Shown here: positions 33,124 through 34,577 of the stretch, piece after piece | How positions within the stretch are numbered: position 1 is the first letter of the stretch | How the letters are laid out: each line of letters starts with the position of its first letter | Assembly: GCA_964607835.1 (NCBI GenBank) | Contig: CAZSLL010000006.1 | Coordinates: 20,003-69,794, forward strand | Direction of reading: 5' to 3' | Source of the DNA: an uncultured archaeon | GTDB lineage: Archaea; Aenigmatarchaeota; Aenigmatarchaeia; QMZP01 | DNA: 49,792 nt | The notes under the pieces: model-generated | What the model was told of the DNA's origin: nothing | What the model saw: only the letters and a program-made list of their open reading frames with translations | The model's database searches: none | Translations under genes and position numbers: made by a program

Positions 33124-33145
33124 CAGAGCCCTCGTAAGAAAGATT

Positions 33146-33294
33146 AAAAGGCAGCTATCTGGGCTTCCCCCTCGAAAGGAGTACCACCCAGACCGTGGGA
33201 GGGCTTGACTTCCGTGTTCGAATTTCCCCACCCCGCGCATCCGCGCGGAAACGGCGTATGGGAACGGGTAGACACCTCCACTTTGGCCGCCATT
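33146..33294 (-). rRNA. rrf: 5S rRNA with 35-nt insertion/intron (33223-33257) in loop C
   Basis: Minus strand reads GGCGGCCAAAG...ACCCGTTCCCAT[35 nt]TTCGAACACGGAAGTCAAGCC...GGTA...GAA...GCTGCC. Helix I GGCGGC/GCTGCC, TTATAAAA box ~25 nt upstream. Ends approximate. Confidence 0.9.
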
Positions 33295-33349: not shown

Positions 33350-33535
33350 CGCCCAGGCCGGGATCTTCAGAACCGTTTTGTATGCGGTAGCGTTCTTTCC
33401 GCGAACGCTTTTGGGCGTTTACCGGTCCAAAAGGGTTCATTTGAACCCGGGTCATGGGAGTGACAGTCCCATATGCTAGGCCGATGTGCACCACCTTCCC
33501 CTTTTCAGGGAAAGCAGGTACTACACTACCTGGGC
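33350..33535 (-). tRNA. tRNA-Asp(GTC) with two introns: D-loop 15/16 (33484-33520) and T-loop 59/60 (33364-33439)
   Basis: Acceptor GCCCAGG/CCTGGGC plus discriminator G, anticodon arm TGGGA-CTGTCAC-TCCCA, T-stem CCGGG/CCCGG. Perfect BHB at the T-loop. Oligo-T follows the 3' end. Confidence 0.92.
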
Positions 33536-33656: not shown

Positions 33657-33814
33657 GGGCCCGTAGCTCAGTCTGGTTAGAGCACCGGGCTTTTAACCAT
33701 GTGCGTTAAAAGCGTCGAGGTTCCCGTGGGACCTGTGAGAAGATACCCGGGTGTCGCCGGTTCAAATGCATTCCTGGACGCGTTCCAGGAGGCTTGGGTT
33801 TCCGGCCGGGCTCA
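33657..33814 (+). tRNA. tRNA-Lys(TTT) with two introns: 37/38 (33696-33744) and 59/60 (33767-33800)
   Basis: Acceptor GGGCCCG/CGGGCTC (one G-U), anticodon stem CCGGG/CCCGG, T-stem GCCGG/CCGGC. BHB central helices CTTT/GAAG and TTCA/TGGG. TTTTTATA box upstream. Confidence 0.88.
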
Positions 33815-34577
33815 TTACCCTTTCAATAACAGTACTCGAAAAACAAAATCCAATATGATTCCACAAAAATGACTTTAGTATATTTTTAGGATTGCTGAAA
33901 CCTATATCTGAACACCATTTTTCGTATCCCTTTGCGCCTGGTATGAAGAGTTGGTGGCTCACAAAAGGCTTCTTTGTTTTAGGGTGGATATTCTGCAAGT
34001 CAAGATAAACATTCGGATGAAACCTCAATTCTTCCAGCAATTCTTTTGAGTCCAGTAGTAGATTCTTGCTCGCTGTAGCAAACTTAATCACAGGGTAATA
34101 GTATTTCCTGTTTCCTCTGCTCTTGAAGCAAAATGAGAAATCTGTGTCACCAAGACCTCTCAAAAAATATGCTTTTTTGCTATATGCAGCATCCTTGATT
34201 ATGTCAGGTATTCCGATTTCTTTTTTGGGTCCAATTGGCAGACCGCAGATTTTGTGATAATAATTAACGAGGCCCTTGGAATATGCCCTCAGATAGCAAA
34301 CATGTATCGGAGGTCTGAGATAAAATCCGAAATTCAACCCGAATAAGCTGTATTTTAGATTCCTTACATGGTCTTTAAGATAATGATAATCAGATATCAG
34401 ATTTCCAGTAACTCCTATTTGATAATCTGTTGCATGAGGCTTTTTATCTATGCCTATGTTTCCATCGCCTGTCATTATGCCAATGTCTTCAGCAAGGTAA
34501 TTTGATATTTTATCAGGAAATCTCAGTCCTCTTGACATGTCTTTTTTGCTGGTTTCGATTGTCGAAAAATCCAACAT
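33762..34577 (-). mobile_element. Free-standing double-motif LAGLIDADG homing endonuclease gene
   Basis: Two LAGLIDADG-like helices (LAEDIGIMTGDG and YFLRGLGDTDFS). AT-rich. No intein splicing motifs seen. Confidence 0.85.

Follow-up and report, generated by a model that had tools for sequence, protein, structure and literature searches.

A probable endonuclease-type intron in the only 5S rRNA gene detected in an aenigmatarchaeal genome, and candidate relatives across the phylum

Introns of the endonuclease type are textbook features of archaeal transfer RNAs (tRNAs) and are known in 16S and 23S ribosomal RNA (rRNA) and in one messenger RNA. To our knowledge, no intron has so far been described in 5S rRNA, whose rare insertions were interpreted as retained expansions. 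Here we report an insert of 35 nucleotides (nt) in loop C of the 5S rRNA gene of an uncultured archaeon (Aenigmatarchaeota; QMZP01; assembly GCA_964607835.1), located at positions 33223-33257 of a window of 49,792 nt (contig CAZSLL010000006.1, positions 20,003 to 69,794), which is likely to be an archaeal endonuclease-type intron in the cell's only 5S gene. This insert is one of a population of candidate introns, which occupy four or more 5S positions in the phylum and are predicted kin of tRNA introns.

According to the proposed mechanism, a TATA promoter of its own would drive transcription of the 5S gene. UCCC of loop C would pair in the precursor with GGGA near the 3' end of the intron and form a 4-bp ruler helix of the relaxed hBH (bulge-helix-loop) type, capped on its intron side by CGCC/GGUG and a hairpin. 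A homodimeric epsilon2-type EndA would then cut AUA and AAU, in each case behind the second nucleotide, and RtcB would join the two halves to a 114-nt 5S rRNA whose loop C has the normal 13 nt. The intron would be released, probably as a circle.

The 5S gene was the sole Rfam family found across the window (Table 1). Its match to RF00001 covered the full model with a score of 52.8 bits (gathering score 38), which makes it a member of the family by the Rfam threshold; about 37 nt of the loop C hairpin were handled as an insertion. The initial annotation had reported this insertion on the minus strand, had folded it as a bulge-helix-bulge (BHB) splice motif, and had concluded that cutting by the EndA rule leaves a canonical 13-nt loop C. 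All three statements were borne out. The reverse complement of the insert matched the annotated 35-mer letter for letter, and the fold was reproduced by an unconstrained minimum-free-energy (MFE) fold of the whole 149-nt gene, in which helix III (CCGU/ACGG) stacks directly on UCCC/GGGA and an unpaired GUUU separates the intron closing helix from the internal hairpin. The strict form of the motif is denoted hBHBh', and the relaxed forms hBH, HBh' and BHL (bulge-helix-loop) are those without one bulge or one helix. The insert has the motif in relaxed form only, with 4/4 central pairs, the AUA bulge and a 4-bp closing helix. The z-score of the whole-gene fold was -1.48, which indicates no unusual stability, and fold stability therefore gives no argument for an intron.

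Table 1. Coordinates of the 5S rRNA gene, the elements of its predicted intron and the adjoining features (positions of the window)
Feature	Position	Strand	Basis or remark
5S rRNA gene, 149 nt including insert	33146..33294	-	RF00001, 52.8 bits, model positions 1-120
Predicted exon 1, 37 nt, ends ...CCCGUUCCCAU	33258..33294	-	Intron-less relatives and bulge rule
Predicted intron, 35 nt, relaxed bulge-helix-bulge type (hBH / bulge-helix-loop)	33223..33257	-	
Predicted exon 2, 77 nt, starts UUCGAACACGG	33146..33222	-	Intron-less relatives and bulge rule
Exon strand UCCC of 4-bp central helix	33260..33263	-	Pairs with GGGA 33225-33228 in MFE fold
5' bulge AU|A	33257..33259	-	Unpaired in MFE fold; predicted 5' cut between 33258 and 33257
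Intron closing helix, 5' strand CGCC	33253..33256	-	Pairs with GGUG 33229-33232
Internal hairpin CCGCGC-GGAU-GCGCGG, 6-bp GC stem	33233..33248	-	MFE fold
Intron closing helix, 3' strand GGUG	33229..33232	-	MFE fold and alignment of relatives
Intron strand GGGA of 4-bp central helix	33225..33228	-	MFE fold and alignment of relatives
3' splice-site triplet AA|U	33222..33224	-	Predicted cut between 33223 and 33222; within a 9-nt unpaired stretch
TATA-like box TTATAAAA	33316..33323	-	Centre about 26 nt upstream of 5S 5' end; read directly
T-rich tract UUUUAAUCUUUCUU	33136..33149	-	At and beyond 5S 3' end; read directly
tRNA-Asp(GUC) gene, two introns	33350..33535	-	Directly upstream of 5S; precursor fold z = -4.98
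tRNA-Asp D-loop intron, 37 nt	33484-33520	-	Central helix GUGU/GCAC; parsed by eye
tRNA-Asp T-loop intron, 76 nt	33364-33439	-	Full bulge-helix-bulge motif

EndA cuts after the second nucleotide of each 3-nt bulge, a rule that also reproduces canonical tRNA T-arms in the window genome (hereafter G000). Applied to AUA and AAU, it gives the junction CCCAU^UUCGAAC, the same sequence as in loop C of relatives without an intron (e.g. G003, G007 and G015). Excision in a script yielded a G000 5S of 114 nt with a 13-nt loop C, which was identical to the 5S of the intron-less congener G002 at 108 of 114 positions, with 0 indels; the 5S of a second congener (G001) likewise measured 114 nt once its insert was taken out. 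The RF00001 score of the intron-less G002 gene was 59.4 bits, compared with the 52.8 bits of the insert-bearing gene. Excision is predicted to restore the host RNA, as is required of an EndA-dependent intron.

The initial annotation had also proposed that loop C insertions of the same geometry be sought in DPANN 5S genes. The survey drew on 243 genomes of the window's phylum, starting with 41 relatives and extending to the order and to samples from the class and phylum; all of the sampled genomes belonged to one class. A 5S match was obtained in 205 genomes, 33 of which carried an insert. Inserts were called when the match was 132-183 nt long, or when it was cut off at 87-121 nt because the RF00001 model could not bridge the insert; the sequence was read in every case. 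They were spread over 13 numbered families and were present in 18 of 72 genomes of the window's order. Within the window's genus, G000 carries an insert at the position described above (site 1), G001 a 20-nt insert elsewhere in loop C (site 2), and G002 none.

The boundaries of 31 of the 33 inserts were parsed as whatever restores the sequence of intron-less relatives, and the lengths ranged from 15 to 82 nt. Sixteen inserts lie after CCCAU, as in G000 (site 1), one lies two bases downstream after CCCAUUC (site 1b), five follow ..CGAA (site 2), and nine are located in the hairpin loop of helix V (site 3). We take the sites to fall at about 40/41, 42/43 and 46/47 in E. coli 5S numbering. The splicing register was tested by asking whether four exon letters can pair with four intron letters, where the exon tetramer ends two bases short of the 5' cut and the intron tetramer two bases short of the 3' cut. 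The central helix had 4/4 pairs in 29 of the 31 parsed inserts and 3/4 in the other two. A full helix was present in 229 of 5208 controls (4.4%) in which either cut was shifted by up to 6 nt, and in 42 of 2025 controls with shuffled introns (run on an earlier set of 27 inserts). The presence of the motif at the one register that would restore a canonical 5S, here and in 28 of the 30 other inserted genes, is far beyond chance.

The paired strands vary among relatives in a manner that preserves the motif. At site 1, the central helix is UCCC/GGGA or UCCC/GGGG in 15 inserts and UCUC/GAGG in G220, and the UCCC exon strand was paired in all 15 aligned same-site inserts. All 16 inserts at this site have AU|A, AU|G or GU|A as the 5' bulge and AA|U, AG|U, GA|U or AU|U as the 3' triplet. 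The helices at site 3 (GCAG/CUGU, GCCG/CGGC, UCCG/CGGA, GUCG/CGGC, UGAU/AUCA and CGAU/GUCG) each track the local helix V exon. In a MAFFT alignment of 15 site-1 inserts, 98.3% of the cells were paired, compared with 40-53% when the 3' partners were slid by 1-3 columns; the closing helix had two-sided changes in 4/4 pairs, and the observed covariation score was reached by 0 of 500 shuffles. The intron interior differed in both length and sequence. Exon-intron pairing thus appears to be kept by compensatory change.

A second line of evidence comes from the tRNA genes. Neither ARAGORN nor Rfam reported a tRNA in the window, and the tRNA-Asp(GUC) gene directly upstream of the 5S gene stayed undetected by Rfam even at E <=1. 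The motif of its T-loop intron consists of the T-stem, bulge GAU, helix UUCA/UGAA, bulge AAU and helix GAACC/GGUUC, and the excised form reads CCGGG-UUCAAAU-CCCGG. The intron holds a module of the form CCCUUUU-hairpin-AAAAGCGUUCGCGGAAA (window copy at about 33396-33435). The corresponding pattern CCCUUU..AAAGCG..CGGAAA occurs 15 times in G000 (e.g. C3:39377, C14:20778 and C17:1347) and is absent from shuffled genomes. Of these 15 copies, 13 stand directly after the start of a T-loop and two elsewhere. Five relatives contain 4-23 copies each, compared with 0-1 for a reversed-pattern control. In four of these five, one copy lies inside the 5S insert (G018, G019 and G036 at site 1, G150 at site 2), and the other copies are located at D-loop, anticodon-loop and T-loop positions of tRNAs. 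The module matched no Rfam family. Because it is common to both kinds of insert, the 5S inserts of the relatives are assigned to the same putative intron family as tRNA inserts that require removal for function.

Further observations were made on the module and on the tRNA genes. The general form of the module is CCCUUUU-hairpin-AAAAGCGUUCGCGGAAAGAACGCUNCCGC, in which the first hairpin differs between copies, and GCGG in the loop of the second hairpin could pair with a downstream CCGC to form a possible pseudoknot. In other families the first hairpin is a near-palindrome, CUUUUCUUUU-GNAA-AAGAAAAG, which is repeated in introns of both 5S and tRNA genes as well as in spacers; it was seen in the 5S inserts of G031, G034, G115 and G184, in tRNA introns by the 5S gene of G130, and in the 5S flank of G027. 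A module-bearing insert was also noted by eye in a sequence resembling domain V of 23S rRNA (locus L073, G150:C3:13120-13330), where it interrupts ...GAGUCCAUAU and AUCGACGGG.... In G000, RF00005 recovered 6 tRNAs at E <=0.01, and ARAGORN called 15, 11 of them with introns, several of the calls having implausible introns of more than 1 kb. Most tRNA genes of this genome are probably masked by multiple introns.

Enzymes suited to such substrates are encoded in the genome. A single EndA gene (L037:1204-2400, minus strand; 398 amino acids; PF01974, 93.8 bits) aligns over its full length to PDB entry 4fz2 (E 1.6e-99), which is the apo form of the epsilon2-type EndA of ARMAN-2, Ca. Micrarchaeum acidiphilum (PMC12397907). 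The ARMAN-2 enzyme cut not only strict motifs but also a relaxed hBH (bulge-helix-loop) T-loop intron in vitro (PMC3239211), a breadth that depends on the loop GTYKVSEH with lysine 161 (PMC3488258). The G000 enzyme has GIYKQT at the position of this specificity loop, its GIYK matching GTYK with the loop lysine aligned, and keeps the motifs FRxYFPG, EWIHSKH and KKTF/RKTF, which hold the catalytic Tyr, His and Lys. It is a predicted epsilon2-type EndA of broad specificity, and an RtcB (518 bits) is encoded as well, so that the genome appears to hold both an endonuclease for relaxed motifs and a ligase. A DPANN lineage, as presumed in the initial annotation, would be consistent with the small size of the genome and with an EndA resembling that of ARMAN-2.

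The geometry of the motif argues for cleavage and is silent on ligation. The insert might be cut out and the halves of 37 and 77 nt left unjoined, held together by helices I-III as a fragmented 5S rRNA. Fragmented rRNAs occur in other organisms, and since helices I, II and III all join exon 1 to exon 2, a nicked molecule could hold. Set against this is the intact RtcB, which must join many tRNA halves produced by the same enzyme and would not be expected to spare 5S ends, whose chemistry is the same. We give an unligated 5S only a slight chance.

Several points weigh against reading the insert as a spliced intron. We infer cleavage, ligation and circularisation from sequence. The predicted 3' splice site lies in a stretch of nine unpaired nucleotides, AAUUCGAAC, with no closed 3-nt bulge, which makes it a relaxed substrate. 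A naive scan for the motif over whole genes returned about 4-40 false positives per gene; the motif alone therefore proves little, and it was used only at boundaries set by homology. The inserted genes are related, so that the 29 of 31 are not independent cases and perhaps amount to some five or six independent sites or types of central helix. Boundaries at site 3 and in four late additions were set by eye against intron-less relatives, and where a repeated letter allowed two equivalent cuts, the one in register was taken. The intron of G000 itself is without the module and, by blastn-short, has no second copy in the genome; it represents a short form that has only the site and the ends (A-CRCC...GGUG-GGGR-AA) in common with module-bearing introns. 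In a control with tRNAs, the strict motif (4/4 central pairs and at least 3 directly adjacent closing pairs) recovered only 3 of the 15 module-bearing introns of G000, and when boundaries were defined only by a restored T-arm and the best equivalent excision was taken, T-loop introns had 4/4 central pairs in 6 of 13 cases and 3/4 in 5. Many tRNA introns of G000 thus seem more relaxed than those in 5S genes, which would fit a tolerant enzyme and suggests that the strict rule is not general. Finally, expansions that grow from loop C (positions 34-37) are retained in the 5S rRNAs of some bacteria (PMC7812874).

The last point bears on the possibility that the mature 5S rRNA keeps the 35 nt, as a helix added to loop C, in the way of the Halococcus insertion and of some clostridial loop C insertions. 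The insert does form a compact helix stacked on helix III. The initial annotation had argued from the contact between loop C and protein uL5 that retention would probably be harmful, and this argument is weaker than stated: PMC7812874 describes bacterial expansions at loop C positions 34-37 that are retained, although it calls positions 42-43 blocked by uL5. The same paper describes retained expansions as without complementarity to the core and as leaving conserved motifs uninterrupted; the insert of G000 splits CCCAU|UUCGAAC and pairs with UCCC. A retained helix would have no reason to form a 4-bp exon-intron helix with a 3-nt bulge in the restoring register, as 29 of 31 inserts do across four kinds of site. 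Also against retention, the flanking loop letters are as conserved in insert-bearing as in intron-less genes, the interiors vary between 15 and 82 nt, and the inserts of relatives contain the tRNA-intron module. Retention therefore appears improbable for G000.

A point in favour of retention comes from the two inserts of family f20 excluded from the set of 31 (G119, locus L044, and G163, locus L045), which look like plain covarying hairpins that extend helix V. Both lie in helix V / loop D, measure about 30 nt and fold into perfectly covarying hairpins, of 11 bp and 7 bp; no splice register tried gave more than 3/4 central pairs. Each may be a retained expansion or a very relaxed intron.

The initial annotation had suggested looking for a second, intron-less 5S copy, and none was found: the search of G000 (1.18 Mb in 48 contigs, completeness estimate 90.4%) with RF00001 gave only the match in the window. 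The interrupted gene could still be a pseudogene, an unexpressed copy or an assembly artefact, with a normal 5S gene in the unassembled tenth or so of the genome, since metagenome bins often lack rRNA genes and 38 of the 243 related genomes gave no 5S match. Opposed to this are exons that match the congener's 5S at 108 of 114 positions, with helix changes that remain compatible, and a promoter-like box and a T-tract that are in place. The box TTATAAAA, judged by the TATA box spacing expected in archaea, is probably the gene's own promoter, and the tract UUUUAAUCUUUCUU is a plausible terminator. The sole-copy arrangement recurs in the 33 genomes and 13 families, including genomes of 1-10 contigs (G027 with 7 contigs, and G220), and artefacts that recur at four sites and each obey the bulge rule are not credible. 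A disabled copy or artefact is highly unlikely. In the survey as a whole, 203 of the 205 genomes had a single 5S match and two genomes (G126 and G237) had two.

Five genomes of the same family without a 5S match (G010, G014, G016, G022 and G068) were searched further; neither a looser Rfam search nor a scan for the exon 1 pattern with up to 2 mismatches recovered a 5S gene in them. Their missing 5S genes are probably located in unassembled sequence. A self-splicing group I or group II intron was also considered for G000, and is ruled out by the size of 35 nt and by the lack of any matching Rfam family, even at E <=1.

In sum, a splice intron is supported at the level of sequence by the sole copy, the patchy distribution, the register, the compensatory changes, the presence of EndA and RtcB, and the module shared with tRNA introns. 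The closest known systems are the BHB introns at noncanonical positions of archaeal tRNAs, which depend on broad-specificity EndA (epsilon2 in ARMAN-2, (alpha-beta)2 in Crenarchaeota). In common with the 5S insert they have splice sites on either side of a 4-bp exon-intron helix, a relaxed hBH/BHL form, a short and variable length, and a patchy distribution among close relatives (PMC3239211, PMC3488258). The same type of enzyme is encoded in G000, and the module is common to these introns and to the 5S inserts of relatives. The differences are that the host is a 5S rRNA, that the sites are in loop C and in the hairpin loop of helix V, and that the G000 insert is without the module.

Introns of 16S and 23S rRNA are often long and may encode homing endonucleases, whereas the 5S inserts are non-coding and of the short lengths given above. 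These introns and the BHB stems of pre-rRNA concern large rRNAs or rRNA flanks, and they show that the same endonuclease and ligase act on rRNA precursors (PMC7714728; a 2026 bioRxiv preprint). Retained 5S expansions, such as the 108-nt insertion of Halococcus morrhuae and those in loop C of clostridia, resemble the present inserts in adding nucleotides to 5S rRNA, sometimes in loop C, and in causing a length anomaly under the covariance model. The sole archaeal expansion site found by Stepanov and Fox (2021) is 104.1-105, and the Halococcus expansion was shown to be retained (PMC7812874). The G000 insert differs in that it breaks a conserved motif, pairs in the EndA register, and occurs in a lineage with a predicted broad-specificity EndA. 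Among 645 5S genes of candidate phyla radiation (CPR) bacteria, no insertion of at least 100 bp was found (PMC11270868). Like the initial annotation, which knew of no spliced 5S intron, we found no report of an intron inside 5S rRNA in a literature search whose scope left out most subscription journals and supplements. The mechanism is already known; the host gene and its sites are new.

Two observations concern the surroundings of the 5S genes. In the window, a second intron-laden tRNA with the anticodon loop CUUUUAA (Lys-like) runs from 33657 to about 33800 and beyond on the plus strand and diverges from the tRNA-Asp gene; it has a sub-threshold RF00005 match of 20.3 bits at 33657-33764, and its 3' part is overlapped by an open reading frame at 33762-34577 on the minus strand. 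In three other genomes (G093, G108 and G130; loci L052-L054), two intron-bearing tRNA genes follow within about 200 nt after the 5S gene, which suggests that a cluster of 5S and tRNA genes, as found in the window, may be conserved.

The results also have consequences for annotation. Covariance models lose score on inserted 5S genes or truncate them, several matches having been cut at 87-101 nt. Together with the recovery of only 6 tRNAs at the Rfam threshold, this implies that the "missing" 5S and tRNA genes of small archaeal bins may in part be intron-laden genes.

A broader reading, which we put forward tentatively, is that the 5S introns are the tip of a mobile population of small, structured endonuclease-type introns that move among the tRNA, 23S and 5S genes of the phylum and whose module, CCCUUUU-hairpin-AAAAGCGUUCGCGGAAAGAACGCUNCCGC, fulfils an independent function, such as intron spread by reverse splicing, stabilisation of circular RNA or the binding of a processing factor. 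If true, ribosome assembly would need EndA and RtcB for all three rRNAs, and the under-calling of tRNA and 5S genes by standard tools would be explained.

If the 5S rRNA of these archaea is spliced, the substrate range of EndA and RtcB would reach the third rRNA, and 5S maturation across the phylum would depend on the tRNA-splicing enzymes. The inserts, 15-82 nt long and located at four positions, would provide a natural set of minimal non-tRNA substrates for the epsilon2 enzyme, and the presence of one intron family in the tRNA, 23S and 5S genes of one genome would offer a direct handle on intron movement.

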